NCBI GenBank assembly: GCA_016700015.1
Contig: CP064995.1
Span: 150,001 to 182,000 of the forward strand
Direction of reading: 5' to 3'
DNA length: 32,000 bases
Source: Candidatus Saccharimonadota bacterium
GTDB taxonomy: Bacteria; Patescibacteriota; Saccharimonadia; Saccharimonadales; Saccharimonadaceae
The translations under genes and the position numbers were made by a program. The notes under the pieces are model-generated. The model was not told the origin of the DNA. It did no database searches and worked only from the letters and a program-made list of their open reading frames with translations. Positions 5,447 through 29,122 of the stretch are shown here, piece after piece (the first letter of the stretch is position 1; every line of letters begins with the position of its first letter).

Positions 5447-5448
5447 GG

Positions 5449-5454
5449 TATACT
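5449..5454 (+). promoter_or_regulatory. -10 box TATACT, 9 nt upstream of the obg ATG (leaderless-type)
   Basis: TATACT at 5449-5454 and ATG at 5464. No SD in between. Confidence 0.4.
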
Positions 5455-5463
5455 AGACACGAG

Positions 5464-6753
5464 ATGTTTGTTGATACAGCCACTGTGACAGTTCGGGCGG
5501 GTAGGGGCGGCGATGGAGCCGTCAGTTTTCGTCATGAGATTTATGTCGATAAGGGCGGACCTGATGGTGGCGATGGCGGTAAGGGCGGCGATGTCGTATT
5601 TGTCGCTACCGAGAATCTTAATACACTTTTAGATTTTCGCTATAGGCCCGAACTAAAAGCTGAAGATGGGATAGCAGGTAGTAAGCGCAAGCGAGCTGGC
5701 CGTATGGGTCAGAGTTTATATGTGAAAGTCCCGGTTGGTACAGTTGTCAAACAGGACGGTAAGGTGATTACCGATCTCACGACACATGGTGAACAAGTCG
5801 TGATTGCGAAGGGTGGTGACGGCGGCTTTGGTAACGCACATTTTAAATCAAGCACACGCCAGACACCGCGCATGGCTGAGTTGGGTGAACCTGGTGACGC
5901 TTTTGAAGCTGAGCTCGAGCTTAAGTTGCTCGCAGATGTTGGACTTGTTGGTTTTCCTAACGCCGGTAAATCAACATTTCTCTCTGTTGTCTCAAATGCT
6001 AGGCCGGAAATTGCGGAGTATGCCTTTACGACACTTACTCCCAACCTTGGTGTGGCCGATATCGATAATGGTAGTTTGCTGATTGCGGATATCCCAGGTC
6101 TTATCGAGGGAGCCAGTGCGGGCAAGGGTCTTGGAGACGCGTTTTTACGTCACATTGAACGCACTGCAGTCCTGCTCCATCTTGTTGACGCCTATAGCAA
6201 CGATGTGGCAACAACATACCAAACGATCCGCAAAGAGCTCGCGAACTATAGTTCTGAACTCGTAGGGCGACCCGAGGTGGTTGTACTAAGTAAGTGTGAT
6301 GGTTTGGACCAAGATATTGTTGCTATGCAGATTGTCGAGCTGAAACATGTGGTTCCAGATGGTACGCCGGTCTATGCGATGTCATCGGCTGCCCATCAGG
6401 GCGTCAAAGAAGTACTGCGCGAACTGTACAAACAGGTTCAGGCTGCACGGGGACGAAGACCCGTTGTCGATGAACCCCAGGGCGAGCAGGTGGTTATTAC
6501 TCTTTCCCGCGGTGCGTTCGACAAGCACTGGCAGGTTGCCTATGATGAGTCAGATCAGCGCTACCACGTCCAGGGCGATAAAATCGAGAAGTTTGCGCGA
6601 CGCACTAACTACGATCAGTTTGAAAGTGTGAACCGTCTTCGTGATATCATGAAGCGCCTTGGCATTACACACGAACTAACTAGGCAAGGAGCAACAGGTG
6701 ATAGTATGGTGCAGATCGGTGACAGTCGACCATTCAGTGTTGTAGAGCAATAA
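5464..6753 (+). CDS. obg: GTPase Obg/CgtA
   Basis: Gly-rich Obg fold N-terminus (MFVDTATVTVRAGRGGDGAVSFRHE...). G motifs GFPNAGKST, DIPGLIEGA and SKCD. C-terminal OCT-like domain. Confidence 0.95.
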   Translation: MFVDTATVTVRAGRGGDGAVSFRHEIYVDKGGPDGGDGGKGGDVVFVATENLNTLLDFRYRPELKAEDGIAGSKRKRAGRMGQSLYVKVPVGTVVKQDGKVITDLTTHGEQVVIAKGGDGGFGNAHFKSSTRQTPRMAELGEPGDAFEAELELKLLADVGLVGFPNAGKSTFLSVVSNARPEIAEYAFTTLTPNLGVADIDNGSLLIADIPGLIEGASAGKGLGDAFLRHIERTAVLLHLVDAYSNDVATTYQTIRKELANYSSELVGRPEVVVLSKCDGLDQDIVAMQIVELKHVVPDGTPVYAMSSAAHQGVKEVLRELYKQVQAARGRRPVVDEPQGEQVVITLSRGAFDKHWQVAYDESDQRYHVQGDKIEKFARRTNYDQFESVNRLRDIMKRLGITHELTRQGATGDSMVQIGDSRPFSVVEQ

Positions 6754-8171
6754 TGCCGAAATCTTTTTTCTTCTATGACCTTGAAACAAGCGGTCTATCA
6801 CCACAAAACGACCGTATTATGCAGTTTGCTGGTCAAAGGACTGATCTGGAGCTTAACCCTATCGGAGATCCCTACAATGTACTAGTTGCACTCTCAGATG
6901 ACACGCTGCCGAGTCCTGATGCCCTCATGGTGACAGGCATTACTCCGCAGAAAACAGTCGAAGAAGGTTATAGCGAAGCCCAGTTCAGTCGCCTGCTGAT
7001 GGAAGGTGTGTTTACAGAAGATACGATCGCAGTTGGGTTTAACAATGTGCGATTTGATGACGAGTTTATTCGTCATCTTTTTTGGCGTAATTTTTACGAC
7101 CCCTATGAATGGAGCTGGAAAGATGGTCGCTCACGCTGGGATCTGCTCGATGTAGTGCGGATGACAAGGGCCCTTCGTCCAGGCGGTATTAATTGGCCAG
7201 TGTCTAGTGAAGGCAAGCCCGTCAATAAGCTTGAAGCTATCACCAAAGAAAATGGTATAGCACATGATAATGCTCACGATGCCTACGCCGATGTTGTAGC
7301 GCTCATTGAGGTTGCTAGTTTGATTAGGCAGAAGCAGCCGCAATTGTTCGATTACTTACTCAAACTCCGCGACAAGCGTGAAGTGCAACAGCTTGTAAAC
7401 CTTGATACGAAACAGGCTTTTGTGTATACGAGTGGTCGTTATGATGGTAAGTATGGTTGCACCACTGTCGCTTTCCCGCTGACATTGGGGCGCAATGGTA
7501 ATATTGTTGTCTACGATCTTCGGGTTGACCCGACGCCATTTATCGAGCTATCCACAGCTGAGCTCCAAGATCGATTATTTGCACCCTACGACACGCGTAG
7601 GAAAAGCGGTTTCGTACCTGTTCCAGTGAAAGAACTACAATATAATCGCGCTCCGGCGGTCGCACCCCTTAGTGTGCTTGGCATCGACAGTGGCTGGGAG
7701 AAGATTGGACTCGATCAACATACGGTCAAAAACCATACGCAATCATTGCTAGCAAACCCTGCATTTGCCGAACGTCTTAGAACTGCATATGAGACGAGGC
7801 CAACATTTGCGGCCGCAATCGATCCCGAAGCGCGGCTCTATGAGACATTTTTGTCTGATAGCGATAAGCTGAGGGTTGAAACGGTACGTAATGCCACAGA
7901 GCAATCGCTTGCTGACTATCATCCGGAATTTTATGACGATCGTTTGTCTCCGCTTCTACTCCACTATAAGGCTCGCAATTTCCCCCGCACGTTAAGTGAA
8001 CAGGAAGTGGTCAAATGGGAAGAATGGCGCACCGAACGACTACGCGCTGCGCTACCTAGATTTATGGGCGGCTTGGCACAATACGCCACTACTGCAACTA
8101 CTGAACAACAATTTGTTTTGCAAGAATTGCAGCTCTGGGCTGAGTCGATTTTGCCGGCCTATACCGACTAG
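6753..8171 (+). CDS. sbcB: Exodeoxyribonuclease I (DEDDh 3'-5' exonuclease)
   Basis: FFFYDLETSGLSPQNDRIMQFAG (ExoI motif), later HDAYADV, length 472 aa. TAATG overlap with obg. Confidence 0.88.
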   Translation: MPKSFFFYDLETSGLSPQNDRIMQFAGQRTDLELNPIGDPYNVLVALSDDTLPSPDALMVTGITPQKTVEEGYSEAQFSRLLMEGVFTEDTIAVGFNNVRFDDEFIRHLFWRNFYDPYEWSWKDGRSRWDLLDVVRMTRALRPGGINWPVSSEGKPVNKLEAITKENGIAHDNAHDAYADVVALIEVASLIRQKQPQLFDYLLKLRDKREVQQLVNLDTKQAFVYTSGRYDGKYGCTTVAFPLTLGRNGNIVVYDLRVDPTPFIELSTAELQDRLFAPYDTRRKSGFVPVPVKELQYNRAPAVAPLSVLGIDSGWEKIGLDQHTVKNHTQSLLANPAFAERLRTAYETRPTFAAAIDPEARLYETFLSDSDKLRVETVRNATEQSLADYHPEFYDDRLSPLLLHYKARNFPRTLSEQEVVKWEEWRTERLRAALPRFMGGLAQYATTATTEQQFVLQELQLWAESILPAYTD

Positions 8172-8446
8172 ATGTGGCTATAGCGCCGTTTCGGCATACG
8201 AGGTTTATGAGTTGCTAACTCGTGTCGACGTGCGTTGTGGTGAATGAGTGCGCGCTCAATATAATGTGCGATCACCAGAGCAATAACAGTACAGTAGACA
8301 GCCATCATAAGCCAGTAAGGAACGACGTAGTCAGTCCCGGGCACATGTCCTGCGATAATGAGATCGAGGATAGCTGACATACCATCGCCTTTCATAAAAG
8401 CGAGGAAGCTAAGACAAGCGATACTGATGATTAATACTTTTTTCAC
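8168..8446 (-). CDS. Small hypothetical membrane protein (92 aa)
   Basis: Hydrophobic N-terminal segment (MKKVLIISIACLSFLAF) plus one or two more hydrophobic segments and a basic C-terminus. Convergent 4-nt overlap with the sbcB end. No recognisable family. Confidence 0.5.
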   Translation of the reverse strand: MKKVLIISIACLSFLAFMKGDGMSAILDLIIAGHVPGTDYVVPYWLMMAVYCTVIALVIAHYIERALIHHNARRHELATHKPRMPKRRYSHI

Positions 8447-8559
8447 AAGGTGATTCCTTTAACGTTATTTCATTATATCACAAAATTGATAATAAAGCAA
8501 TAGTATTTCTCTCAATTTAATTTCTGTTCAAGAGACTGGAAAAACAAAGTAAATTTAGG

Positions 8560-8565
8560 TATAAT
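8560..8565 (+). promoter_or_regulatory. -10 box TATAAT, 8 nt upstream of the uvrA ATG (leaderless-type)
   Basis: TATAAT at 8560-8565 and ATG at 8574, in an AT-rich divergent intergenic region. Confidence 0.45.
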
Positions 8566-8573
8566 ACTAAGCC

Positions 8574-11384
8574 ATGTCTGAGATGATTCGTGTTAGAGGA
8601 GCGAGAGAGCATAATCTTAAGGATGTCAATGTCGATATTCCACGTGACAAATTCGTGGTCGTTACTGGACTAAGCGGTAGTGGCAAATCGAGTCTAGTGT
8701 TTGATACGATTTATGCTGAAGGCCAGCGCCGCTATGTCGAAAGTCTCAGTAGTTACGCTCGGCAATTTCTAGGGATTATGGACAAACCCGATGTCGACAG
8801 TATTGACGGCCTTAGCCCGGCGATCAGTATCGATCAAAAATCAACCAGTCGCAACCCACGCAGTACCGTCGCCACTGTCACTGAAATCTACGACTATCTT
8901 CGTTTGTTATTCGCGCGTATTGGCGTGCCTCATTGTCCGGTTTGTGGTAAGGCAGTCCACCGCCGCACACCTCAGGCAATTATTGATGAAATTATGAAAC
9001 TTCCCGCCGAGACAAAGGCGCTGATACTAGCACCAATTGTTTCTCAGAAGAAGGGTGAGTTCGCCCATATTCCCGAGCAGTACTCGCGTCTTGGGTTTGC
9101 GCGCGTGCGAGTTGACGGGGTGGTGTACGCTCTCGACGAGTTCCCCGAACTGCAAAAAAGTTTCAAGCATGACATCGAACTCGTCGTCGACCGTCTAGTC
9201 ATTAAGCCCGATGCCGTCAGCCGGATCACTCAGTCGGTGGAGCAGGCGCTGGAAATCGCTGGTGGAGTTGTCGAAGTGCTTAACGCAGACAACGGTGAAG
9301 CGCACGTATTCAGTCAACGGTATGCATGTGTCGATCACCCGAGTGAAGACATCCCCGAGCTCGAGCCGCGTCTTTTTAGCTTTAATGCGCCCCAAGGTGC
9401 ATGTCCGGTGTGCACTGGCCTTGGCAGCCGACTCGAAGTCGATCCTGACCTAGTATTTAATCCTAATCTAACAATTGCCGAAGGTGCAATCCGGCCCTAT
9501 AATCGCGTCAACAGTGACGCTTGGTATATGAAACGACTTGCAGTTGTGGCCGACGCACATGGATTTAGTATTCATGTGCCAGTAAAGAAGCTCAGCGACG
9601 AAGATTTACAAAAAGTTCTCTACGGTACTGGCGCACAGAAATACCGGGTACGCCTGAATGGTGGTCGGTTTTACGACTCCACCTACGAAGGTGTTATCCC
9701 AAACTTGGAGCGACGCCATAAAGAGACTGATAGTGAGTTTATGCGCAAAGACATAGAGCGATTTATGCGTGAACGCCGCTGCACCGCTTGCCAGGGCGCG
9801 CGGCTCAAGCCGGCAGTGCTTGCCGTTAAGGTGCACGGGCTGAATATTATGGAAATATGCAACCTCGGTGTAGATGAAGCAATTGAACTGATTGACGGAC
9901 TACACCTCAGCGAAGACGAGGAGTTTATTGCTAAGCCAATCAGGAAAGAAGTTCGAGCTCGTCTTGGGTTTATGAGCAATGTCGGCCTGAGTTACCTGGA
10001 ACTTTCGCGGGCTGCCAACACGCTTAGTGGTGGTGAAGCGCAGCGTATTCGACTCGCTACACAGATTGGTAGTGGGCTACAGGGTGTACTGTATGTGCTT
10101 GATGAGCCTAGTATTGGCCTCCATCAGCGCGATAACGATCGGCTCATAGCCACACTCAAGCACCTGCGCGATCTCGGTAACTCGGTGCTGGTTGTTGAGC
10201 ATGACGAGGACACTATCCAGCATGCAGACTACTTGATTGATGTTGGTCCCGGTGCCGGGGTGCATGGCGGTCAGATTGTGGCGTACGGTACGCCCGAGGA
10301 AGTAGCCGCTCACCCCAACAGTATCACCGGTAAGTACCTTGCGGGCGTCGAAAAAATCCCCGTACCGAAGCGTCGTCGTCCGATAGAATTTGATCGTAAA
10401 CTGACAGTGCTTGGTGCGCGCGAGAATAATCTAAAAGGCATCAATGTCGCCTTTCCGCTCGGTGTGCTGACCGTCGTGAGCGGTGTTAGTGGTAGCGGTA
10501 AATCAACGCTCGTCAACGATATTCTTGCCAAAGAACTTTCCGCTAGGCTACACCGCGCTCAGGAAGTGCCCGGTGCGCACGATAATATTGAAGGTATTGA
10601 CCAGCTCGACAAAGCGATTGTGATTGATCAGTCGGCAATCGGTCGCACACCACGCTCTAACCCAGCTACCTATACCGGCGTGTTCACACCAATTCGCGAA
10701 CTGTTTGCCGGTACTCCCGAAGCTAACATCCGTGGCTACAAAGCAGGGCGATTTAGTTTCAATGTCAAAGGTGGTCGCTGCGAAAATTGCCAAGGCGACG
10801 GCGTGATCAAAATTGAAATGCACTTCTTGCCCGATGTCTATGTGACCTGCGACGAATGTAAAGGCAAACGCTATAACCGAGAAGCATTGGAAATAAAGTA
10901 TAAAGACAAAACCATCAGCGATGTGCTCGACATGACGGTCGAACAGGCTTGTGAGTTTTTTGCTAACATCCCTAGTATTGCCCGCAAACTCGACACCCTG
11001 AATGAAGTTGGGCTCGGTTATATTAAGCTTGGCCAGCCGGCAACCACATTCAGCGGCGGTGAAGCACAGCGTATCAAACTCGCCACCGAACTAAGCCGGC
11101 GCAGTACTGGTAAAACTCTTTATATTCTCGACGAACCCACCACTGGCTTGCACACCGCAGACGTCAAAAAGTTACTCGAAATACTCGACAAACTAGTCGA
11201 TGGTGGCAATACTATGATTATCATCGAGCACAATCTCGAAGTCATCAAATGCGCCGACTATATTATCGACATGGGGCCCGAAGGTGGTCAGGGCGGCGGC
11301 ACCATTGTCGCCGAAGGTACGCCCGAAGCCATAACAAAAGTTCCCGTATCATTTACGGGGAAATACCTCAAAAGTCTATTGTAA
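8574..11384 (+). CDS. uvrA: Excinuclease ABC subunit A
   Basis: 936 aa with two ABC ATPase modules (GLSGSGKSSL, GVSGSGKSTL; LSGGEAQR twice). CxxC zinc modules (CPVCG, CPVCTG, CENCQG...CDEC). Confidence 0.97.
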   Translation: MSEMIRVRGAREHNLKDVNVDIPRDKFVVVTGLSGSGKSSLVFDTIYAEGQRRYVESLSSYARQFLGIMDKPDVDSIDGLSPAISIDQKSTSRNPRSTVATVTEIYDYLRLLFARIGVPHCPVCGKAVHRRTPQAIIDEIMKLPAETKALILAPIVSQKKGEFAHIPEQYSRLGFARVRVDGVVYALDEFPELQKSFKHDIELVVDRLVIKPDAVSRITQSVEQALEIAGGVVEVLNADNGEAHVFSQRYACVDHPSEDIPELEPRLFSFNAPQGACPVCTGLGSRLEVDPDLVFNPNLTIAEGAIRPYNRVNSDAWYMKRLAVVADAHGFSIHVPVKKLSDEDLQKVLYGTGAQKYRVRLNGGRFYDSTYEGVIPNLERRHKETDSEFMRKDIERFMRERRCTACQGARLKPAVLAVKVHGLNIMEICNLGVDEAIELIDGLHLSEDEEFIAKPIRKEVRARLGFMSNVGLSYLELSRAANTLSGGEAQRIRLATQIGSGLQGVLYVLDEPSIGLHQRDNDRLIATLKHLRDLGNSVLVVEHDEDTIQHADYLIDVGPGAGVHGGQIVAYGTPEEVAAHPNSITGKYLAGVEKIPVPKRRRPIEFDRKLTVLGARENNLKGINVAFPLGVLTVVSGVSGSGKSTLVNDILAKELSARLHRAQEVPGAHDNIEGIDQLDKAIVIDQSAIGRTPRSNPATYTGVFTPIRELFAGTPEANIRGYKAGRFSFNVKGGRCENCQGDGVIKIEMHFLPDVYVTCDECKGKRYNREALEIKYKDKTISDVLDMTVEQACEFFANIPSIARKLDTLNEVGLGYIKLGQPATTFSGGEAQRIKLATELSRRSTGKTLYILDEPTTGLHTADVKKLLEILDKLVDGGNTMIIIEHNLEVIKCADYIIDMGPEGGQGGGTIVAEGTPEAITKVPVSFTGKYLKSLL

Positions 11385-20712: not shown

Positions 20713-21909
20713 ATGCGCCCCAGTCCTCTTCCACCGGATGTAGTACGACTCATCGAAGCACTTGATGGCGGCTTGGTGGTTGTCACTGCCTATGCTCAGC
20801 AGCAACTATCGGGTGATATGGCTGCACCTTTTGTGCAAGAAGCGAGTTTTTGGTGGTTGTCGCGTATCGAGCAGCCCGGATGGAAGCTAGTAATCGATGG
20901 CTCACGACGGAAAACCACCCTTATACGTCCCAGGTTGACGAAATCTCAGATAGTATTTGACGGTGGGCTAGATGACAGTCGGGCTCTTGAGCTTTCGGGT
21001 GCGCATGATGTAATAGGCGCAGACGAGTTTGAGGCTTTTTTGAGACAGGCGCGTCGTGCGCATAGCATGGTGTATACGATAAAGCCGAATATCGAGGAAT
21101 ATGACTTTGAAACTAACCCGGCGCAGCATGAGCTATGCGTAGTGCTCGAGCGCATATTTACCACGGTGCAGGACTGCACGCCTGCACTCGCACAGCTCCG
21201 CGCCATTAAGACACCATTCGAAATTATGTCAATGAAAAAGGCGATTAAGCTGACGACAACTGCTTTCGCAGAGGTTCGAGCCAGACTCGGTGATTACTCG
21301 TACGAATATGAAATTGAGGCAGATATTACACGCTGTTTTCGACGTCATAATGCCAAACATGCCTACGAGCCAATTGTTGCAAGTGGCAAAAACGCACTAA
21401 CACTTCACTATACTGCCAATCGGCATAAACTTGCTAAAAATCAGTTTGTGTTGATTGATGTCGGTGCACGGGCTGACGGGTACTGTGCCGACATTACGCG
21501 CACGTACTGCATAAATCCTACAAAACGTCAGCGTCAAGTCCATGAGGCAGTTGAACATGCACACCATGCCATTATTTCACTCATAAAGCCAGGCCTTCCT
21601 GTGGCTGAGTATCTGAGCCAAGTTGATGAGATCATGAAAGATGCGATGATACGCCTGGGCCTTTTAAAGGACCGGTCGGACGAAGTTCTCTACCATACGT
21701 ACTTTCCGCACGCGGTGAGCCACGGTCTTGGTGTCGACGTCCACGATAGCCTGGGTGCGCCACGCTACCTTGCTGAAGGTATGGTGCTTACCGTAGAGCC
21801 CGGCATCTATATACCAGAAGAAGGAATTGGTGTCCGCATTGAAGATGATGTCCTTGTGACAAAGACTGGCTATAAAAACTTGAGCGGTTCGCTGTCGACA
21901 AATCTCTAG
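20713..21909 (+). CDS. M24B family Xaa-Pro aminopeptidase/dipeptidase
   Basis: Pita-bread fold metal-ligand contexts: LIDVGARADGYCADITRT, HGLGVDVHD, LTVEPGIY, GVRIEDDVLVT. Confidence 0.9.
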   Translation: MRPSPLPPDVVRLIEALDGGLVVVTAYAQQQLSGDMAAPFVQEASFWWLSRIEQPGWKLVIDGSRRKTTLIRPRLTKSQIVFDGGLDDSRALELSGAHDVIGADEFEAFLRQARRAHSMVYTIKPNIEEYDFETNPAQHELCVVLERIFTTVQDCTPALAQLRAIKTPFEIMSMKKAIKLTTTAFAEVRARLGDYSYEYEIEADITRCFRRHNAKHAYEPIVASGKNALTLHYTANRHKLAKNQFVLIDVGARADGYCADITRTYCINPTKRQRQVHEAVEHAHHAIISLIKPGLPVAEYLSQVDEIMKDAMIRLGLLKDRSDEVLYHTYFPHAVSHGLGVDVHDSLGAPRYLAEGMVLTVEPGIYIPEEGIGVRIEDDVLVTKTGYKNLSGSLSTNL

Positions 21910-21917
21910 TAAGACGC

Positions 21918-21923
21918 TATACT
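21918..21923 (+). promoter_or_regulatory. -10 box TATACT, 10 nt upstream of the 21934 ATG
   Basis: TATACT at 21918-21923 and ATG at 21934. Confidence 0.35.
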
Positions 21924-21933
21924 GAAATCAATA

Positions 21934-22329
21934 ATGAAACGCCAGTTACTTACGTTTGTGATCCGATGGATGCTCAATTCATTTGGCCTATGGGTGGCGG
22001 TCAGGATTTTTGGGACTGGATACAGCAACGCGCAAATTGATCAAGGAGCAGCAGTCTTTTTGCTGGCAGGGCTTATTTTCTCAGTAGTTAACGCGGTATT
22101 AAAGCCAGCTGCCATTATATTGGCTTTGCCGGCAATTCTCGTCACGCTCGGGCTCTTCACGATTATTGTTAATGGTCTTATGGTGTATATTTCTCTCAAG
22201 CTTGCCCCGGGGCTAACGATGACATTTTGGCACTCGGTTCTTACTGGTTTGGTGCTAAGTTTGGTAAACTATATAGTTAGTAGCGCGCTTGAATTAGAGT
22301 ATGTGCGCGTGCGAGAGGAGAAATCGTGA
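21934..22329 (+). CDS. Four-TM membrane protein, phage holin family IV-like (YvlD type)
   Basis: 131 aa. The pattern RWMLNSFGLWVAVRIF...LLAGLIFSVVNAVLKPAAIILALPAILVTLGLFTIIVNGLMVY is typical of the PF04020-type family. Confidence 0.65.
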   Translation: MKRQLLTFVIRWMLNSFGLWVAVRIFGTGYSNAQIDQGAAVFLLAGLIFSVVNAVLKPAAIILALPAILVTLGLFTIIVNGLMVYISLKLAPGLTMTFWHSVLTGLVLSLVNYIVSSALELEYVRVREEKS

Positions 22330-22559
22330 ATATAGACAGTATACTTCAGACAATTACTGTTGGATCGGCTCTTTTGATGATAATTGCCATCCTGTTACAG
22401 CAACGTGGAGCAAGCCTTGGTGCTGGATTTGGTGGCTCAAGCGAGCTATACACCACACGGCGTGGACTCGATAAGAATTTATTTGAACTAACGATTTTTC
22501 TTGCGATTACGTTTGTGCTCTCTATTCTCGCCGGGCTAGTACTACCCAACTTAAAATAG
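22326..22559 (+). CDS. secG: Preprotein translocase subunit SecG
   Basis: 77 aa, two TM helices, and LLQQRGASLGAGFGGSSELYTTRRG (SecG signature). GTG start preceded by SD GAGGAG (22315-22320). 4-nt overlap with the upstream gene. Confidence 0.8.
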   Translation: MNIDSILQTITVGSALLMIIAILLQQRGASLGAGFGGSSELYTTRRGLDKNLFELTIFLAITFVLSILAGLVLPNLK

Positions 22560-22568
22560 GATACATGT

Positions 22569-24362
22569 GTGGAAGAAAAACGTGGGTGGAACCAATTTAG
22601 ACATATAAGGCTGAATCACAAACAGCTTGCGCGGCGTATGAAAAAAGCCGAAGGTGCCACACAGCGCCACGCACATCGTTTTATCGTGCGTCGTATCGAT
22701 AACATTCGGCTCGTCACAAGAGAGATTACAACATGGCTGCTAGTAGTCGGAGTAATTATTGCAACCACAGGTTTTCAGCTCATTTGGGGCCAGACTCATT
22801 TTATGCGCAGCACGCCTGTCGCGGGTGGTACGTATGTTGAAGGTGTTTTGGGGCAGATCGATACCATGAACCCCCTTTTTGTAAGTACACCTTCGGAAGC
22901 ATCAGTGGCGCGCCTTGTTTTTTCGTCGCTCTACAACTATGACGAAACTGGGAGTATTCACCAAGATCTCGCTAAGACTCTCACCGCTGATCAAAGCGGC
23001 AAAGTCTACACCATCACTCTCCGTGACGACGTAAAGTGGCATGATGGTGCAGCTTTGACGGCTAAGGACATTGTATTTACAATCAACCTTATAAAAAATC
23101 CGGCAACTCGCTCGCCGCTGCGGATCAATTGGCTTGACGTGTCTGTTACCGCGCCTACGAATACCACGGTCCAGTTTACGCTTCCCGCTACCTATGCGGC
23201 TTTTCCTCATGCGTTAACATTCCCAATATTACCCGAGCACATCTTGCGGGGCGTTGCCCCGGGTGCGCTACGAGAAAGCCCCTATAGTCGTTCACCAGTG
23301 GGGAGCGGTCCATTTAGTTTTCGGCTATTACAAGCTGCCGATGCGGTCAGTAAGCACAAAGTTGTCCACCTTGTGGCGAATGATCGATATTATGCTGGCA
23401 TACCGAAACTTGATCGATTTGAACTCCATGCTTACCCCACGGAAGATGCACTGCTGAGTGCGCTTAAGGCTGGAGAGCTAAGTGGCGCAAGCGGTGTTTC
23501 TGTTACGTCTCTTTCGCAGGTAGATACTGCACGCTATACAATGACTGCGCAAGCACTCTATAGCGGTGTATACATACTCTTTAATGTGAACAATCCCATA
23601 CTAAAAGATAGTAAGGTACGCAAAGCTTTACAGATTGGGACTGATACCATTTCATTGCGCAAGGTTATAGGTGGAGGTGTTCTCCCGCTTGACACGCCAG
23701 TTATTGAAAGTCAACTAACCGAAGGTGATTTCCCGAAACTGTCGTCGATTGACACGACGAAGGCGAAAGCTCTACTAGATGAAGCCGGCTGGGTTGTCAG
23801 TGGAAGCAACCGCGCAAAAGACGGTAAAATACTCGAATTCACTATTACCACTACGAAAAATCCCGAATACGAAAAATCGATTGATGTATTGACAAGGCAG
23901 TGGCAGACCTTGGGGGTAAAGGTAAATAAAAAGATTGTTGACGTATCGACAGTTACTTCGACATTTGTTCAGGATGTATTAAAAGCGCGAAACTTTGACA
24001 TGCTTCTTTATGAACTAGCGATTGGCGGCGACCCAGATGTCTATGCTTATTGGCATTCATCACAGGTGGGGCAGAGTGGCTATAACTTCTCTGGCTATGC
24101 GAGCAAGGCGGCAGATGCAAGTTTGGCAAGTGCCCGTTCTCGGCTCGAGCCAGAACTGCGCAGCGCCAAGTATAAACAGTTCGCCCGTCAATGGCAAGAA
24201 GATGCCCCTGCGCTAGGACTATATCAGCCTGTCTTAGAATATATTGCTAATCTGAATGTGAAAGCTGTCAACAAAGGCACCATACTCACTACAGAGTCTG
24301 ACCGTTATGCCAATGTCCAGTACTGGACTGTCAATGAAAAGAATTTATACAAAACGCCATAA
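22569..24362 (+). CDS. ABC-transporter family-5 (peptide/nickel, OppA/DppA-like) solute-binding protein, membrane-anchored, with no adjacent permease/ATPase genes
   Basis: The 597-aa ORF has a basic N-terminus and one TM helix (WLLVVGVIIATTGF). SBP_bac_5-like body (DDVKWHDGAALTAKDIVFT...). Start uncertain (GTG 22569 or a later ATG). Confidence 0.8.
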   Translation: MEEKRGWNQFRHIRLNHKQLARRMKKAEGATQRHAHRFIVRRIDNIRLVTREITTWLLVVGVIIATTGFQLIWGQTHFMRSTPVAGGTYVEGVLGQIDTMNPLFVSTPSEASVARLVFSSLYNYDETGSIHQDLAKTLTADQSGKVYTITLRDDVKWHDGAALTAKDIVFTINLIKNPATRSPLRINWLDVSVTAPTNTTVQFTLPATYAAFPHALTFPILPEHILRGVAPGALRESPYSRSPVGSGPFSFRLLQAADAVSKHKVVHLVANDRYYAGIPKLDRFELHAYPTEDALLSALKAGELSGASGVSVTSLSQVDTARYTMTAQALYSGVYILFNVNNPILKDSKVRKALQIGTDTISLRKVIGGGVLPLDTPVIESQLTEGDFPKLSSIDTTKAKALLDEAGWVVSGSNRAKDGKILEFTITTTKNPEYEKSIDVLTRQWQTLGVKVNKKIVDVSTVTSTFVQDVLKARNFDMLLYELAIGGDPDVYAYWHSSQVGQSGYNFSGYASKAADASLASARSRLEPELRSAKYKQFARQWQEDAPALGLYQPVLEYIANLNVKAVNKGTILTTESDRYANVQYWTVNEKNLYKTP

Positions 24363-24440
24363 TGAGATTTGTGTCTGGCTAGGGAATTCCTGAATTAGGT
24401 ATACAATTGGCAATTTGACCAACCGAAAGTTCTTACCAGG

Positions 24441-24508
24441 GCCTTAATCCAACCTAAAAGGATGAGCCGAAACTCATCTTTATAGCGTGGTGCACTGGAG
24501 AAGACTTG
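24441..24508 (+). repeat. Site 1: arm P + 9-bp core TGGTGCACT + 12 nt of the tRNA-Leu(GAG) 3' end (attB-like relic)
   Basis: TGGTGCACTGGAGAAGACTTG (24488-24508) is identical to 28070-28090, the reverse complement of the last 21 nt of tRNA-Leu(GAG). Arm P (24441-24487) recurs at 24624-24669. Confidence 0.85.
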
Positions 24509-24623
24509 GCGAAGCGCCGCTTGGTGAGAAAGAGCAAGCTCTTTTTCGCCAAGCCAGCGGAGGAGCGAAGCGATACATCCACAATTTTGCCGAAGGCAAA
24601 ACACGCTGGAAGTTCGTGCCAAA

Positions 24624-24678
24624 GCCTTAATAAACCTAAAAAGATGAGCCGAAACTCATCTTTATAGCGTGGTGCACT
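24624..24678 (+). repeat. Site 2 left part: second copy of arm P + core (left element junction, attR-like in tRNA orientation)
   Basis: GCCTTAATAAACCTAAAAAGATGAGCCGAAACTCATCTTTATAGCG + TGGTGCACT. About 90% identical to 24441-24496 (one indel and a few mismatches). On the minus strand it contains the hairpin AAAGATGAG/CTCATCTTT followed by a T-rich tract, which looks like the native tRNA-Leu terminator. Confidence 0.85.
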
Positions 24679-24851
24679 TTTACACGCAAGTCCGAACCTA
24701 TTTTGAGCAAAATGGCTGACAAATGCAAGCCCCGTCGCCTAGCACAGCAAAGCTGTGCTGCGCCCCGCTCAGAAAACCCTTTGCATATTTTTTTGAGATT
24801 TCCCCCGCCGAGATTTTTTTGGAAAAGGAAAAGGGTGTTTCTGGTCGGGTC
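24670..24851 (+). repeat. Inverted repeat R (left copy, 9-bp core + 173 bp)
   Basis: By eye, the reverse complement of 26012-26193 along its full length. Supported by identical 50-aa translations of the spurious ORFs 24703..24915(+) and 25975..26160(-). Confidence 0.9.
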
Positions 24852-24939
24852 GCGTCTGCCTTTGGCAGACAGGCGGCGTGGCTCGGTCGGCATAGCCGAC
24901 ACACTTCGCCAGTGAAGCGTAAAAGCAGATGAACAGTTG

Positions 24940-24945
24940 TATAAT
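24940..24945 (+). promoter_or_regulatory. -10 box TATAAT, 6 nt upstream of the cargo Nudix ATG (leaderless-type)
   Basis: TATAAT at 24940-24945, ggaggt, then ATG at 24952. The GGAGG is too close to the ATG to serve as an SD. Confidence 0.4.
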
Positions 24946-24951
24946 GGAGGT

Positions 24952-25374
24952 ATGATAGATTTTATCGGAGTGAAAATTGCCCTAATAAACAACGGCAAAC
25001 TACTAATGATACAGCGCGATGACAAACCTGGTTTACGCTATGCTGGCTTGTGGGATTTTCCCGGTGGCGCAAGAGAAGAAAACGAAACCCCAGCGGAATG
25101 TGTAATTCGCGAGGTTGATGAAGAACTGGGAATTACGCTTAAACCAGAACAAATAATCTGGGAAAGGGTTTTTCCAGCTATGCACGACGAGAGATTAAAC
25201 GCATATTTTATGGTTGCAGAAATATCGGACAACGATGTTGATAACATAGTTTTCGGCGATGAGGGACAGGGCTGGAAAATGTTTGCTATTGATGAATTCC
25301 TTAACTCAAACGAAGTAGTTGAACCACTAAAAGATAGGCTCAAGCCATATCTTGACACTAAAGTTCAGGTATAA
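24952..25374 (+). CDS. Nudix hydrolase (element cargo)
   Basis: Nudix box GGAREENETPAECVIREVDEELGI, 140 aa from ATG 24952. The track's TTG start at 24937 would overlap the TATAAT box. Confidence 0.85.
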   Translation: MIDFIGVKIALINNGKLLMIQRDDKPGLRYAGLWDFPGGAREENETPAECVIREVDEELGITLKPEQIIWERVFPAMHDERLNAYFMVAEISDNDVDNIVFGDEGQGWKMFAIDEFLNSNEVVEPLKDRLKPYLDTKVQV

Positions 25375-25966
25375 GTTCTTTTAATCTCTCTCTTAATTGG
25401 TCGGGGCTTGTAAAAGTTATACCGTGCATACCGACAGATGTGGCGGCTTGGGCGTTTTCGGGGTCATCATCAATAAATATAGTTTGATCGGCTTTCGCCC
25501 CAAGAGTTTCAAGGGCATACTCATAAATGTCTTTGTGGGGTTTGCGCAGGCCTATCTCGTGCGACAACAAGACGATACCAAAATCATCATACAAGCCTGC
25601 TTCTCGTAGTGCTTTTGCGTGTGGCTCAATGGTGTTAGACAACACTGCCGTCTTAATGCCGAGTTCGCCCAAGTCTTTGACAATAGTCCGAACCTCTGCG
25701 AACGGCACGAGCTGTTCTATAAATGCGCGCCCTAACAAGTTTTCATCTACTCCGACTTGCCTTAATCCGTGTTTCTCGCTGACTTGTTGCCAAAACTCTG
25801 TTTCGTCAATTTTACCTGAACCAAGTAAAGGAATTTGCTCTGCCCAAATTTGAGCAAGTGTTTCCTTGCTCAAACCAAGCTCATTAGCTAAATCCTCCGT
25901 AACTGCTGAGTTACTCTCGTGCAGAACGCCGCCCGCGTCGAAAATAACGGTTTCTATCTTACTCAT
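25358..25966 (-). CDS. HAD-superfamily hydrolase/phosphatase, subfamily IA-like (element cargo)
   Basis: HAD motifs I VIFDAGGVL, II VLSNT, III GLRKP, IV IFIDDDPEN. 202 aa. Convergent 17-nt overlap with the Nudix gene. Confidence 0.88.
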   Translation of the reverse strand: MSKIETVIFDAGGVLHESNSAVTEDLANELGLSKETLAQIWAEQIPLLGSGKIDETEFWQQVSEKHGLRQVGVDENLLGRAFIEQLVPFAEVRTIVKDLGELGIKTAVLSNTIEPHAKALREAGLYDDFGIVLLSHEIGLRKPHKDIYEYALETLGAKADQTIFIDDDPENAQAATSVGMHGITFTSPDQLRERLKELIPEL

Positions 25967-25973
25967 AGATGTA

Positions 25974-25979
25974 ATTATA
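25974..25979 (-). promoter_or_regulatory. -10 box TATAAT, 7 nt upstream of the HAD ATG (a second TATAAT at 25984-25989)
   Basis: The minus strand reads GGGGTTATAATATGTTATAATtacatctATG. Confidence 0.4.
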
Positions 25980-26011
25980 ACATATTATAACCCCTGTCGC
26001 ATAGCGACAGA

Positions 26012-26193
26012 GACCCGACCAGAAACACCCTTTTCCTTTTCCAAAAAAATCTCGGCGGGGGAAATCTCAAAAAAATATGCAAAGGGTTTTCTGAGCGGGG
26101 CGCAGCACAGCTTTGCTGTGCTAGGCGACGGGGCTTGCATTTGTCAGCCATTTTGCTCAAAATAGGTTCGGACTTGCGTGTAAAAGTGCACCA
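26012..26193 (-). repeat. Inverted repeat R (right copy, 173 bp + core AGTGCACCA)
   Basis: Reverse complement of 24670-24851. Confidence 0.9.
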
Positions 26194-26289
26194 AAAAGCG
26201 ATTTTTCGGGAAATTGTCGCCTACCAGGGCGATTTTTTCTTTGGTCGCGCGCAGCGCGAACCAAATGTTTTCTTGGGGGGAAATGGGAA
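26185..26289 (+). repeat. Inverted repeat S (left copy, core + 96 bp); with R' it forms the internal attP-like junction (site 3)
   Basis: Reverse complement of 27974-28078. Supported by 33 identical aa shared between ORF 26144..26383(-) and the recombinase C-terminus (ISPQENIWFALRATKEKIALVGDNFPKNRFLVH). Confidence 0.9.
26217..26238 (+). terminator. Hairpin TCGCC-TACCAG-GGCGA + T6 inside arm S (plus-strand copy)
   Basis: 5-bp GC-rich stem followed by TTTTTTCTTT. This is the same module as 28025-28046 on the minus strand. Confidence 0.45.
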
Positions 26290-26293
26290 GATG

Positions 26294-26323
26294 CCACGCC
26301 TGCGGCGTGGTTTTTTGTTTTTT
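26294..26323 (+). terminator. Strong rho-independent terminator upstream of the recombinase gene
   Basis: CCACGCC-TGC-GGCGTGG (7-bp GC stem) followed by TTTTTTGTTTTTT. Confidence 0.8.
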
Positions 26324-26481
26324 AGGTTGGCATAGCCGACACGCTCCGCGTTGTGCTACCATAGAAAGTGGAAAACAATTCAAGGCATATGCTGTTTTGT
26401 GCTTAAACGGCTACTTCGCAACTATTTGGCGTATGCTGAATTGTTTTCCAAGCGGAGTAGCCTTTTAAGTTGGGAGGGTAT

Positions 26482-28110
26482 ATGCAACTACAACAAATAG
26501 CGCAACGATTGGTGTATTTCATCTATGTGCGTAAGTCTACGGATACAGAGGACAAACAAATCTTATCTATCGCGGCGCAGATAGTGGAACTCAAGGAGTT
26601 TGCTAAGCGCATGGGCTTGTATATCGCTGATGTCATCATAGAAAAGCAAACGGCGAAAACGCCAGGTCGCCCCAAACTCAACAAAATGCTGGAGCGCATA
26701 GAAAACGGTGAGGCAAACGGTATTTTGGCATGGTTGCCCGACAGATTGTCGCGCAACTCAATAGATAGCGGACGGATTATTTACATGCTGGACGTAAACG
26801 TCCTGCAAGACCTAAAGTTTCCGCATTTTTGGTTTGAAAACACACCACAAGGCAAATATATGCTGGCTAACGAGTTCAACAGCTCTAAACAGTACGTGGA
26901 CAATTTGTCAGTAAACACAAAACGAGGTTTGCGGCAAAAAGTTCGTGATGGTCATTATCCAAGTATCGTACCATTCGGCTATTACAACGATGTGCGGACA
27001 AAGACGGTGGCTAGAAACAAAAAAACCGCGCCGCTGGTGCGCCGATGTTTTGAACTGTACGCTAAAGGCGACAAGACATGCGGAGACATCGCGGATTTTT
27101 TGTTTGCTAACGGTGTGGCGACCAAAGGTCGCCGCAAAACCAAAAATGACCCGAAGTCGGCGGGCGGTAAACGCTGGCACGAAACAAAAGTCAAACATAT
27201 GCTCTCGAATATCTTTTATTATGGGCATTTTCGCTACGCTGGCGAAGTATACGAGGGTAAGCATACCCTGATAGTGGACAAAGCATTGTTTGACCGCGTA
27301 CAGGCTGTGCTATTGCGCCGCTCGCGGGCGCAAAAACGCGCCACCAGTCCGCAACCGCTGACAATGCTTTTTCGCTGTGCGAACTGCGATTGTTTTGTTA
27401 CTGGCTCGCACAAGATAAAGCGACAGAAAAACGGCAATGTCCATGAGTACACCTATTACCGATGTACGCACAAAAGCAAAAAAGTCACGTGCCGCGAGCC
27501 GGAACTGCGCGAATACGCGCTGGCAAGCCAACTCGTACCAATTGCGCGGTCATTTGCTATGCCGAAAGATATGGGCGCGTTTATGCTCGCCAAACTGGAC
27601 CAGGACGCACAAGTCGTCCAAGCCGACAGCGCTAGATTAATTGCTACGCACCGCGCCCGACTGGACGAACTGGCCGGCAAGAGTCAGCGACTTTTTGACG
27701 TCTATATGGACGGCGATATTGAGCAGGATGAATACCGCGAAAGACGCGCCGAAATTATGTCTGAGAAAAAGTCGCTAGAAAGCAAAGTGGAACAAATCGC
27801 CGCTCGCGCTGACTTTTGGATTGAACCTATGCGCGAGTGGGTCAAAACAGCAATTTCACTCTGTAAAGTTGACGAAAACACCCCACACCAAGCCTTGCGC
27901 GAGAGTTTACGCAGAATCGACGGATTGAACCTGCTCTTAAAAAACAAAAAAGTCGTTGCCAGCAACGACCAATTTCCCATTTCCCCCCAAGAAAACATTT
28001 GGTTCGCGCTGCGCGCGACCAAAGAAAAAATCGCCCTGGTAGGCGACAATTTCCCGAAAAATCGCTTTTTGGTGCACTGGAGAAGACTTGAACTTCCACG
28101 ATCGCAATGA
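26482..28110 (+). CDS. Large serine recombinase (resolvase/invertase N-domain + recombinase domain + zinc ribbon + coiled coil)
   Basis: Catalytic N-terminus VYFIYVRKSTDTEDKQILSIAAQ and WLPDRLSRN. Zn-ribbon CANCDC...YYRCTHKSKKVTC. Coiled coil near aa 400-460. SD GGGAGG at 26472-26477 before ATG 26482. The last ~45 codons run through arm S', the core, and antisense into tRNA-Leu(GAG). Confidence 0.92.
   Translation: MQLQQIAQRLVYFIYVRKSTDTEDKQILSIAAQIVELKEFAKRMGLYIADVIIEKQTAKTPGRPKLNKMLERIENGEANGILAWLPDRLSRNSIDSGRIIYMLDVNVLQDLKFPHFWFENTPQGKYMLANEFNSSKQYVDNLSVNTKRGLRQKVRDGHYPSIVPFGYYNDVRTKTVARNKKTAPLVRRCFELYAKGDKTCGDIADFLFANGVATKGRRKTKNDPKSAGGKRWHETKVKHMLSNIFYYGHFRYAGEVYEGKHTLIVDKALFDRVQAVLLRRSRAQKRATSPQPLTMLFRCANCDCFVTGSHKIKRQKNGNVHEYTYYRCTHKSKKVTCREPELREYALASQLVPIARSFAMPKDMGAFMLAKLDQDAQVVQADSARLIATHRARLDELAGKSQRLFDVYMDGDIEQDEYRERRAEIMSEKKSLESKVEQIAARADFWIEPMREWVKTAISLCKVDENTPHQALRESLRRIDGLNLLLKNKKVVASNDQFPISPQENIWFALRATKEKIALVGDNFPKNRFLVHWRRLELPRSQ
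27974..28078 (-). repeat. Inverted repeat S (right copy, 96 bp + core); right element junction (site 4, attL-like in tRNA orientation)
   Basis: Reverse complement of 26185-26289. Lies within the recombinase 3' coding region and abuts the tRNA 3' end. Confidence 0.9.
28025..28046 (-). terminator. Element-borne terminator for tRNA-Leu(GAG), about 24 nt downstream of its CCA end
   Basis: The minus strand reads TCGCC-TACCAG-GGCGA-TTTTTTCTTT. It replaces the presumed native terminator now found in arm P. Confidence 0.5.
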
Positions 28111-28157
28111 TCACCAGCCCCTCAAGCTGACGCGTCTACCAATTTCGCCACCAGTGC
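28070..28157 (-). tRNA. tRNA-Leu (anticodon GAG), type II with long variable arm, CCA encoded
   Basis: Manual fold: acceptor GCACTGG/CCAGTGC, D arm GCG-AAATTGGTAGA-CGC, anticodon stem TCAGC/GCTGG with loop TTGAGGG, variable arm with GATC/GATC stem, T arm GGAAG-TTCAAGT-CTTCT, discriminator A, CCA. Confidence 0.9.
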
Positions 28158-28197
28158 ATATGAATTATGAGAACGTACCATCGGAGTTTTATGTCGT
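28146..28197. repeat. Direct repeat copy a: tRNA-Leu(GAG) 5' end (12 nt) + its upstream/promoter region
   Basis: CGCCACCAGTGCATATGAATTATGAGAACGTACCATCGGAGTTTTATGT. About 88% identical to 28266-28318 (offset 120 bp). Confidence 0.8.
28164..28169 (-). promoter_or_regulatory. -10-like box CATAAT, 6 nt upstream of the mature 5' end of tRNA-Leu(GAG)
   Basis: The minus strand reads CATAATtcatatGCACTGG. Confidence 0.35.
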
Positions 28198-28265
28198 CCT
28201 TGGACATATTGTCTTAGCGGCGGAATCGGTAGACGGGCGTCTACTACTATTTGCGTTTCACGCAG

Positions 28266-28318
28266 TCGCCACCAGTGTATATGAATTGTATGAACGTACC
28301 ATCGGAGTTTTGTGTACT
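28266..28318. repeat. Direct repeat copy b: orphan duplicate of the tRNA-Leu(GAG) 5' end + promoter region
   Basis: CGCCACCAGTGTATATGAATTGTATGAACGTACCATCGGAGTTTTGTGT. The rest of the tRNA is not duplicated. Adjacent hairpin GTAGAC-GGGC-GTCTAC at 28230-28245. Confidence 0.75.
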
Positions 28319-28373
28319 TGCAAGATTATAGTCGATAACACACTTTTTGTAAATAACAGATGAGCTAGCATGA

Positions 28374-28379
28374 TATAAT
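28374..28379 (+). promoter_or_regulatory. -10 box TATAAT, 9 nt upstream of tRNA-Cys
   Basis: TATAAT at 28374-28379. The tRNA 5' end is at 28389. Confidence 0.4.
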
Positions 28380-28388
28380 AAGGAGCAC

Positions 28389-28462
28389 GGCGCGTTGGCG
28401 GAGCAGTTACGCGGAGGTCTGCAAAACCTTTTAGATGGGTGCAACTCCCATACGTGCCTCCA
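28389..28462 (+). tRNA. tRNA-Cys (anticodon GCA), CCA encoded, U73 discriminator
   Basis: Manual fold: acceptor GGCGCGT/ACGTGCC (one G-U pair), D stem GCG(G)/(A)CGC, anticodon stem GAGGT/ACCTT with loop CTGCAAA, 4-nt variable loop, T arm ATGGG-TGCAACT-CCCAT, then T-CCA. The 5' and 3' ends resemble E. coli tRNA-Cys. The T-loop has G where U55 is expected. Confidence 0.8.
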
Positions 28463-28495
28463 AAATAATCTCAAACTTTGGGATTATTTTGTTTT
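28461..28495 (+). terminator. AT-rich hairpin + T-run after tRNA-Cys
   Basis: CAAAATAATC (28461-28470) / GATTATTTTG (28482-28491), an 11-nt loop, followed by TTTTA. Confidence 0.45.
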
Positions 28496-28562
28496 ATGAA
28501 TGTCAATATTTGGGTACCCAAATGCCATTGAAATGGTAAACGCAACCACATACAATAGATAC

Positions 28563-29054
28563 ATGCCAAAACGTAGGTCATGGGATGATAAAAAATAGTA
28601 AAAGCAGTGATGAAAATAAAAGTATTCGAGGGGTACTTATTGACTTGTCGTTAGTCCCGGCTGACGGTAACTATGCCCAAGTAAACAAGAGGATATCAGA
28701 ACTTGGCCTGTCGACATCGCATTTTACGGGCCAGGGCTGGAGCGCTGGTTTGCGTCTTGGGGCAAGAACATTAGACCATTTGCATGAACTTCTCGTTGAG
28801 AATAGTGACTATCAAAGCTTTAAGCTCAAGAGACTATTATTTCGGGAAGAGCTAAAAAACCAAAATGCGAGATTTGTGGCTGGGAAGAGCGGTCAATTGA
28901 TGGTAGAATTCCTGTAGAGCTAGACCATATAAACGGCATCCATTCTGATAATCGACTAGAGAATCTTCGGATTTTGTGCCCAAACTGTCACAGCTTGCAA
29001 CCAACCCATAGGGGGCGCAATAAAAAGCGACGATATGCGCAGATGTTGGAATAG
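28563..29054 (+). pseudogene. HNH endonuclease gene interrupted by two frameshifts at A6 tracts
   Basis: Frame 3: MPKRRSWDDKK* (28563-28598). Frame 1: ...NSKSSDENKSIRGVLIDLSLVPADGNYAQVNKRISELGLSTSHFTGQGW...KRLLFREELKN... (to 28917). Frame 3 again: KCEICGWEERSIDGRIPVELDHINGIHSDNRLENLRILCPNCHS...* (28863-29054). The last segment carries the HNH/Zn-finger core. The shifts occur at A6 28590-28595 and A6 28854-28859. Confidence 0.8.
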
Positions 29055-29122
29055 GTAGACAAGCGACACTTAAAATGTCGTGCCCAAAAGGCGTGCGGGT
29101 TCGATCCCCGCTCTGCGCACCA
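29037..29122 (+). tRNA. tRNA-Leu (anticodon UAA), type II, CCA encoded
   Basis: Manual fold: acceptor GCGCAGA/TCTGCGC, D arm TTG-GAATAGGTAGA-CAA, anticodon stem CGACA/TGTCG with loop CTTAAAA, variable arm with GCC/GGC stem, T arm GCGGG-TTCGATC-CCCGC, A-CCA. Confidence 0.92.

Follow-up and report, generated by a model that had tools for sequence, protein, structure and literature searches.

The DNA analysed here, referred to as the window, is a stretch of 32,000 nucleotides of a Candidatus Saccharimonadota bacterium (contig CP064995.1 of assembly GCA_016700015.1, positions 150,001 to 182,000), and coordinates are those of the window unless a different locus is named. Positions 24679-28078 are a single integrated mobile element of 3,400 bp at the CCA end of a tRNA-Leu(GAG) gene. 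Two cassettes, one with cargo genes and one with the gene of a large serine recombinase (LSR), stand back to back in it, each bounded by perfect inverted repeats that meet at a second, inverted attP inside the element. It belongs to a widespread, apparently undescribed family of Saccharibacteria elements driven by a divergent LSR. On the strength of sequence comparisons, the explanation that we consider probable is that of a family of LSR-driven elements with the attachment sites described below, in which host recombination rarely flips a cassette and the internal attP is kept by selection.

Precise insertion at a tRNA gene

The 9-nt core TGGTGCACT occurs on the + strand at 24488, 24670 and 28070 and on the - strand at 26185 (sites 1, 2, 4 and 3, respectively, numbered from the left); these four copies compare with a chance expectation of 0.30, and four were reached in 0 of 100 shuffles. 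The cargo-side inverted repeat (24670-24851 and 26012-26193, 182 nt) and the recombinase-side one (26185-26289 and 27974-28078, 105 nt) are both 100% identical, and they abut in such a way that the 9-nt internal core is common to the two. This arrangement had been pointed out in a first-pass annotation of the window, all of whose positions were reproduced, far above chance. The core is the complement of the 3' end, AGTGCACCA, of the tRNA-Leu(GAG) gene called by ARAGORN at 28070-28157 on the - strand (Rfam tRNA, 48.6 bits), as the annotation also had it.

The insertion is documented by an empty site. A contig of another metagenome (L119 in our numbering of loci) consists of window positions 20727-24678 (99.4% identity) joined to 28070-29021 (99.8%): exactly the 9-nt core is common to both matches, exactly 3,400 bp (24679-28078) are absent, and one core is present. 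A second contig, L122, has the same junction; the empty site that had been predicted for related genomes, with terminator, core and tRNA end directly adjoining, is thus recovered twice. Site 1, the spacer that follows it (spacer X) and the arm designated P2 are all retained in L119, where P2 is joined straight to core and tRNA; the true attB is therefore P2-core-tRNA. Both copies of the P arm form a terminator-like hairpin on the - strand (24663-24640 and 24478-24461), and the position of P2 in L119 agrees with the earlier proposal that P is the original downstream terminator of this tRNA.

The element is also found at a second target. In a contig of 32x coverage (L126) it recurs with 99.1% identity and both repeats perfect, at tRNA-Leu(TAG) and in a different genomic context. 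Similarly, a 5.5-kb member of the family is 99.6% identical between L021 and L068, at tRNA-Leu(TAA) and tRNA-Glu(CTC), respectively, and the homology stops at the outer cores, which indicates that the whole two-cassette unit moves as one. Overall, the insertion is precise, a short common core links attL and attR to attP and attB, and relatives have the empty site.

Going from left to right, P2 (24606-24669, - strand) is the true left half of attB, the native tRNA-Leu(GAG) terminator displaced by 3.4 kb through the insertion. The attL core TGGTGCACT (24670-24678, + strand) contains the family-wide block TGGTG (24670-24674) and the inferred crossover dinucleotide TG (24673-24674). The R arm (24679-24851, + strand), which combines the attP P'-type half-site with a conserved module, forms a perfect inverted repeat with R' (26012-26184, - strand), its inverted copy according to the repeat comparison; between the two lies the unique part of the cargo cassette (cassette A, 24852-26011, unstranded). 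The internal core AGTGCACCA (26185-26193, - strand) is the centre of the inverted second attP, read as S'-core-R on the - strand. On its other side the S arm (26194-26289, + strand), a mirror of the 3' end of the recombinase gene, is a perfect inverted repeat of S' (27974-28069, + strand), the attP P-type half-site, and the recombinase control region (26290-26481, + strand) and the recombinase gene (26482-28110, + strand, 542 aa) make up the rest of the second cassette. The tRNA gene (28070-28157, - strand) is the right half of attB, with the attR core at 28070-28078 and a T-loop box 18 nt from TGG.

The first-pass annotation had gone further, and proposed that four flanking arms occur in every pairing at the four cores as attB, attL, attP and attR of one reaction, so that substrates and products coexist on one molecule. 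The R and S repeats are indeed perfect, and sites 2, 3 and 4 are formally attL, an inverted attP and attR. Site 1 does not fit. Its limits (24424-24508, unstranded) follow from the direct repeats D2 and D4 together with a match extended to 61 nt, and it consists of P1, a copy of the tRNA downstream region (24424-24487), the core (24488-24496) and 12 nt of tRNA 3' end (24497-24508). Only 21 nt, the core plus these 12, are common to site 1 and the tRNA; the identity breaks off within the T-loop box (TTG-GCG versus TTG-AAC), and the two P copies are imperfect (98% identity over 46 nt, 88.5% over 61 nt). The empty-site strain has site 1 too, without any change, and the T-loop box common to all real attB sites of the family is missing from this site; site 1 is therefore a chromosomal relic of older date, and on the same grounds it was rejected as a live attB or as a product of the 3,400-bp element. 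Site 3, for its part, is a built-in feature of the family, and the supposed coexistence of substrates and products thus dissolves.

Attachment sites and point of crossover

In 27 of 40 loci the identity between attP and attB is limited to TGGTG, the complement of N72-N73-CCA, and core positions 4-5 (TG, AG, CT or TC) covary with N73/N72 of the target tRNA. As an example, attL of L126 reads TGGTGC followed by ACT, and its attR TGGTGC followed by GGA. Relatives with 88%, 80% and 76% recombinase identity carry TGGTGGACT and integrate at tRNAs reading TGGTGC, which puts position 6 outside the crossover. Because only TGGTG is shared and positions 4-5 covary with the tRNA, the crossover dinucleotide is most likely the asymmetric TG, with the polarity of the sites kept. 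The first-pass annotation had instead placed the crossover at the central GC of the palindrome GTGCAC, with loss of polarity. That palindrome is present in the core of the window but is not a family feature, and the proposal was rejected for the family in view of the relatives that lack it, their position 6 mismatched to the target, the identity restricted to TGGTG and the covariation of positions 4-5.

In 25 of 25 loci a box complementary to the T-loop (YYGAAYY) is found at a distance from TGG of 18 nt in the tRNA and of 22 nt in the R arm; the R-arm box is TCCGAACC, followed by GC-rich hairpins. The recognition motif is thus shifted outward by 4 bp in attP, and such a shift is a hallmark of large serine recombinases: for LI integrase, attP has the outer zinc-ribbon motif 5 bp further out than attB does (PMC3783163). 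In the mechanism that we propose, the recombinase would read the T-loop box of the tRNA, 4 bp further out in attP than in attB, and strands would be exchanged within TGGTG, most likely at TG, with many A73 tRNAs usable as targets; the left half of attB would merely be the variable tRNA terminator.

A family of elements in Saccharibacteria

Recombinase homologues number more than 3,000 in a protein search, where the protein of the window itself bears the label Candidatus Saccharibacteria, and 47 loci from reference genomes and 65 from metagenomes were self-compared for repeats. A repeat of about 105 nt surrounds the recombinase gene in 71 loci, and in at least 35 distinct elements a cargo repeat of about 180 nt abuts it at a shared core. 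The common build is attL - R - cargo - R' - core' - S - LSR gene - S' - attR, beside a convergent tRNA gene, which implies that an attP region of about 280 bp would be present twice, in inverted orientation, in the excised circle. Some 77 loci use 18 tRNA species as targets, and element length ranges from 2.9 to 7.9 kb. Two other layouts were discarded: minimal elements with the recombinase cassette only, because the partner R arm was located 5-6 kb upstream or at the contig start, and two independent nested transposons, because no locus has either cassette alone. At the right junctions of L067 (~6864) and L033 (~9551) no recognisable tRNA follows TGGTG, unlike at 73 other loci; these may be pseudo-site insertions or rearranged targets.

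In 24 of 35 elements the two copies of the cargo-flanking repeat are 100% identical, yet R arms of different loci have a median identity of only 77%, so that the R arms evolve in concert. The arms of relatives are 83-99% identical, hence distinguishable, and their layout is unchanged. Three single-nucleotide differences in R between L021 and L068 are mirrored in R'. Over the whole comparison of these two loci (4081-9563) the 1.9 kb of the recombinase cassette are 100% identical and all 17 differences fall in the cargo cassette with its arms, a distribution which suggests that the cargo module may be swapped, with its arms, as a unit between related elements. Compared with L111 and L114, both R arms of L113 (4299-4542 and 7689-7932) have a 42-nt segment between CCCTTTGC and GCAAAGGG in reverse orientation; this is a mini-inversion later copied to the partner arm. 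The R arms of L114 (4204-4449 and 7598-7845) are only 80% identical: the left one differs from the core outward, and its outer flank bears a faint likeness to the end of an S' arm, suggesting that one end of L114 was replaced via recombination with a different element.

Members have unrelated cargo, which comprises Type III, Type IIG and AlwI restriction-modification systems, AAA ATPases, an ABC-F protein, a zeta-like kinase, a CAAX protease, sugar enzymes and a tRNA-synthetase-like gene. The cargo of the window consists of a Nudix hydrolase gene (24952-25374, + strand; Pfam NUDIX, 3.8e-16) and a HAD hydrolase gene (25358-25966, - strand; Pfam Hydrolase, 4.9e-22), which were also called in L126 and L127 (140 and 202 aa). 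These two and the recombinase are the only genes of the window element; a Pfam scan revealed no transfer, replication or partition genes, and the same holds for the cargo of relatives. No relatives were found in IMG/VR viral contigs, and the closest recombinase in phage and plasmid collections has at most 27% identity; a phage or satellite origin was rejected on these grounds. In the open-access literature we found no description of serine-recombinase elements in Saccharibacteria or Patescibacteria.

Up to three family copies occur per genome of ~1 Mb (L006, L013 and L041 are three contigs of one metagenome-assembled genome). Other co-resident members are L027 and L049, on one 468-kb contig, L015 and L042, and L022 and L025; co-resident members occupy different tRNA genes, and their recombinases are 45-80% identical to that of the window. 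Frameshifted or internally deleted recombinase genes are present in L007, L030, L039, L045, L051, L091, L098 and L111-L114, and the arms of these copies are often less perfect as well; decay in place affects a sizeable part of the family.

Recombinase, arms and control region

The recombinase has the Pfam domains PF00239, PF07508 and PF13408 (Resolvase, Recombinase and Zn_ribbon_recom). Residues R17, K18 and S19, together with C299, C302, C328 and C337, are invariant in 30 homologues. In the AlphaFold model a coiled coil spans residues 362-442, with helices at 362-409 and 415-442 (predicted local distance difference test, pLDDT, of 84-92), while the tail (493-542) has pLDDT <50. The enzyme thus has the catalytic serine domain, recombinase domain, zinc ribbon and coiled coil of a large serine recombinase. 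Its last ~36 codons lie within the S' arm, and its stop codon within the tRNA gene.

The arms are rich in terminator-like sites. Those of S' are on the - strand, at 28047-28030 and 27970-27951; read from the tRNA end, a hairpin with a T run is present in all 65 distinct S' arms of the family, and a second terminator on the S' side, ~105 nt out, in many loci. The S arm has a terminator-like site at 26216-26233 followed by a T run, reading toward the recombinase gene, and a second terminator lies in the control region (26293-26321). In the proposed mechanism the S' arm would give the tRNA a new terminator in place of the displaced one, whereas the S arm and the second terminator would shield the recombinase promoter from transcription of the cargo. 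The R arm has a conserved layout of about 150-175 nt in 23 loci, with covarying stems.

The control region (second terminator, palindrome, promoter-like region and leader) is a module conserved in ~50 loci. The palindrome GGCATAGCCGAC and the promoter-like region are at 26325-26362, and in nearly all family loci GGCATAGCCGAC is followed by ACRCTYCGC upstream of the recombinase promoter (26325-26349 in the window); the palindrome may be an operator. Promoters sit within the cassettes. In the window, GGCATAGCCGAC is repeated at the left end of the cargo (24885-24909), upstream of the Nudix gene and with remnants of the neighbouring terminator, and the cargo promoter seems to be derived from the control module of the recombinase. 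Only the window and L061 have this cargo-end copy, and for this reason the palindrome was rejected as a marker of cargo polarity.

Between the promoter-like TATAAT and the start codon of the recombinase there is a structured leader (~26366-26466, ~115 nt), found in the same place in ~50 loci. Its stems are interleaved (26369-82 with 26437-50, 26408-18 with 26452-62), and a T run and a ribosome-binding site follow. RNAalifold predicts 16 pairs, 9 of them with compensatory double changes. A search of Rfam matched only the two tRNAs, and no known RNA family in the arms or leader. The latter may be a new attenuator-type leader, and its two stems may form a pseudoknot.

Orientation of the cassettes

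Among 77 loci the recombinase cassette is in the standard orientation, with the tRNA converging on the 3' end of the gene, in 73, and is flipped in 4 (L088, L089, L115, L120). In L120 the tRNA-Leu(GAG) end is joined to the promoter side of the window's own recombinase cassette (100% identity); the contig was assembled with k=141, and since such k-mers span the 105-nt arm the flip is resolved. L089 is inverted relative to the 99% identical L079 and L082, and its tRNA-side arm bears both S-type variants, which places the exchange within 35 nt of the core. The cargo cassette is inverted in L113 relative to L111 and L114 (95-98% identical). In this clade the recombinase is a shared pseudogene with the same decay pattern, and no second recombinase gene was found upstream of L114; as the cargo was inverted in a clade whose recombinase is dead, host homologous recombination suffices for flips. 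Because the arms are identical, inversion leaves the junction sequences unchanged.

The earlier proposal that both cassettes can flip is borne out in so far as each is found inverted in nature; the free flipping that it implied is contradicted by the 73 of 77 loci in one orientation and by a flip next to a pseudogene. The strong bias argues against a free switch, and also against equal use of the two attP copies. Flipped copies would be short-lived through selection, as read-through from the tRNA would then enter the recombinase gene in the sense direction. In the mechanism that we favor, inversion would be a rare side effect of homologous recombination by the host between arms that are long and identical; through gene conversion this recombination would also keep the arms alike, it would permit swaps of cargo modules, and the orientation to persist would be the one in which recombinase gene and tRNA converge.

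Role of the internal attP and alternative explanations

Most likely, the internal attP would be a functional spare or an architectural copy kept by selection; one candidate form of this is a spare attP and insulator maintained by gene conversion. Several points weigh against the account as a whole. Two equivalent attP copies predict equal orientations, yet one of them prevails in 73 of 77 loci. The exchange point in L089 fits site-specific exchange as well as homologous recombination, and the recombinase of the pseudogene clade may have flipped the cargo before decaying, though L111, L113 and L114 share the decay pattern. No conserved gene for a recombination directionality factor (RDF) was found, only the recombinase gene and the arms being common to the elements, although small or host-encoded factors are possible. 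Finally, the account leaves the long conserved R arm, with its covarying stems, without a role.

A further reading, which we consider unlikely, gives the internal attP with its long conserved arms the role of a DNA-encoded control element in a three-site recombinase machine: one and the same LSR would integrate and excise at the outer sites, and would use the internal one either to license excision without an RDF or to invert the cassettes through pairing of attP with attL or attR. To our knowledge, canonical serine integrases refuse the latter pairings. A more specific form of the idea, which relates to the coiled-coil autoinhibition model of large serine integrases (PMC3783163), is that of a directionality element in cis: a dimer bound at the internal site would contact, at attL and attR, the coiled coils of the subunits of attB type and relieve their autoinhibition, so that a three-site synapse would license excision with no RDF. 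This agrees with the coiled coil of the AlphaFold model, with the absence of a conserved RDF candidate among elements that have only recombinase and arms in common, and with the retention of the internal site, both half-site boxes included, in essentially every member and in all recently mobile copies. We nevertheless regard it as distinctly unlikely, because it is purely inferential and gene conversion from the outer sites could maintain the internal copy passively; moreover some large serine recombinases, such as TnpX and Ccr, work both ways and are not known to need an RDF or such a site.

There is only a small chance that the element is a programmed flip-flop, in which crossover at the palindromic GC of GTGCAC abolishes polarity and either cassette is freely excised or inverted. 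The palindrome does occur in the window core, both targets of the window element share TGGTGC, so that GC is formally possible there, each cassette has been found inverted somewhere, and the exchange in L089 is at most 35 nt from the core. However, the relatives at 88%, 80% and 76% identity have TGGTGGACT and use tRNAs with C at position 6, the identity is exactly TGGTG in 27 of 40 loci, orientations stand at 73 to 4 rather than about 1 to 1, and cargo is inverted beside a pseudogene recombinase.

A slim chance is left to the possibility that the element travels as single-stranded DNA, through natural transformation or type IV secretion, and that its inverted attP copies pair into a duplex attP or draw the flanks together. 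In most intact elements the complementarity of these copies is perfect over 278 nt, genes for transfer or replication are absent, and there are none of the elements in viral contigs. A serine recombinase, however, cuts both strands; integration of such a dumbbell would leave hairpin-capped chromosome ends and call for further steps, and single-stranded DNA could not support expression of the recombinase. We find it very hard to believe that the excised circle is amplified like the yeast 2-micron plasmid, by recombinase-mediated inversion during replication: the inferred circle does have two inverted repeats and two unique regions, one of them with the recombinase gene, but replication and partition genes are absent, cargo is unrelated between members, the isomers are far from equimolar, and all 77 loci are chromosomal insertions.

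Lastly, perfect inverted repeats longer than common k-mers do break short-read assemblies (contigs of k=127 and k=141 assemblies stop exactly k nt into the 182-nt arm), but a chimeric or collapsed join, a concern raised by the first-pass annotation, has practically no chance of being the explanation, since the window junctions are reproduced by the independent assemblies L001, L121, L127 and the 32x L126, and the same layout recurs in dozens of unrelated genomes whose arms differ between loci (relatives, 83-99% identity).

Comparison with known systems

The family resembles large serine integrase elements (A118/LI, phiC31, Bxb1) in enzyme architecture, in its short core, in leaving a precise empty site in relatives and in having the attP motif shifted outward. 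It differs from them by targeting the CCA end of many tRNA genes, by arms of 96 and 173 nt that are conserved far past a 25-bp half-site, by its built-in second, inverted attP, and by having no evident RDF gene and no phage genes. TnpX of Tn4451, TndX of Tn5397 and CcrAB of SCCmec are large serine recombinases that move small non-phage elements; no RDF is known for these enzymes, and their elements are not known to have long inverted arms, an internal second site or targeting of tRNA ends.

The likeness to the FLP/FRT layout of the yeast 2-micron plasmid, noted early on, is one of geometry: the circle inferred for the family likewise has inverted repeats that hold the recombinase site, two unique regions and orientation isomers. 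It does not extend to the proportions of the isomers, which are 73 to 4 and not equimolar. The 2-micron enzyme is, moreover, a tyrosine recombinase, whereas the family has a serine enzyme, is chromosomal and lacks replication and partition functions. In engineered cassette exchange at MiMIC landing sites, inverted attP pairs are reportedly used, two attP against two attB; the cassettes of the family are likewise bracketed by inverted sites and can be swapped or flipped, but here the brackets are attL and attP. In the Hin/Gin/Min switches and the shufflons, too, inverted repeats delimit DNA segments that occur in either orientation. These systems employ small invertases or the tyrosine recombinase Rci, sites of ~26 bp and an enhancer with Fis, and inversion alters expression; the family has a 542-aa enzyme, and inversion is rare and leaves the junctions unchanged.

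Tycheposons of Prochlorococcus are, like the family, small tRNA-adjacent shuttles of variable cargo that use several tRNAs in streamlined genomes (bioRxiv 10.1101/2020.12.28.424599). They have tyrosine recombinases in 910 of 937 cases, and often replication genes; no twin inverted-repeat layout is described for them (bioRxiv 10.1101/2020.12.28.424599), and the family is without a tycheposon-type tyrosine recombinase or replication genes. The likeness is one of functional analogy only.

Implications

What is new is an integrative LSR element with a conserved build of twin inverted repeats and two attP copies that targets tRNA CCA ends; its enzyme and the logic of its sites are those of known large serine integrases. 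Saccharibacteria and other ultra-small episymbionts have tiny genomes with few recognised mobile elements, and the family appears to be a main shuttle of defence and accessory genes in Saccharibacteria. It offers a natural LSR that would read a tRNA T-loop box and could, for this reason, use many tRNA genes. With long conserved arms, an obligatory inverted attP and no evident RDF, it allows the long-standing question of directionality control to be addressed directly in a minimal system. As candidate tools, the recombinase and its attP could also serve to insert DNA into Saccharibacteria at predictable tRNA sites.

Chromosomal surroundings of the element

Spacer X (24509-24605, unstranded), between the two P copies, includes an imperfect palindrome; it is chromosomal, being present in L119. 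It shows no similarity to any fetched locus, and was for this reason rejected as a remnant of another element. The live tRNA-Leu gene is flanked by relics of a tRNA-Leu gene: downstream, 21 nt of the 3' end with the terminator (24424-24508), and 121 bp upstream, the first 13 nt with 37 nt of upstream sequence (28266-28315, - strand; direct repeat D1, chromosomal, 90% identical to 28145-28194). Both relics are also in the empty-site strain, that at 28266-28315 in further contigs too, and an old duplication or an earlier island are possibilities for their origin. Just past the element lie tRNA-Cys(GCA) (28389-28462) and tRNA-Leu(TAA) (29037-29122), unoccupied in the window; the Leu(TAA)/Cys tRNA pair is an insertion site of family members in L021, L028, L086 and L115.

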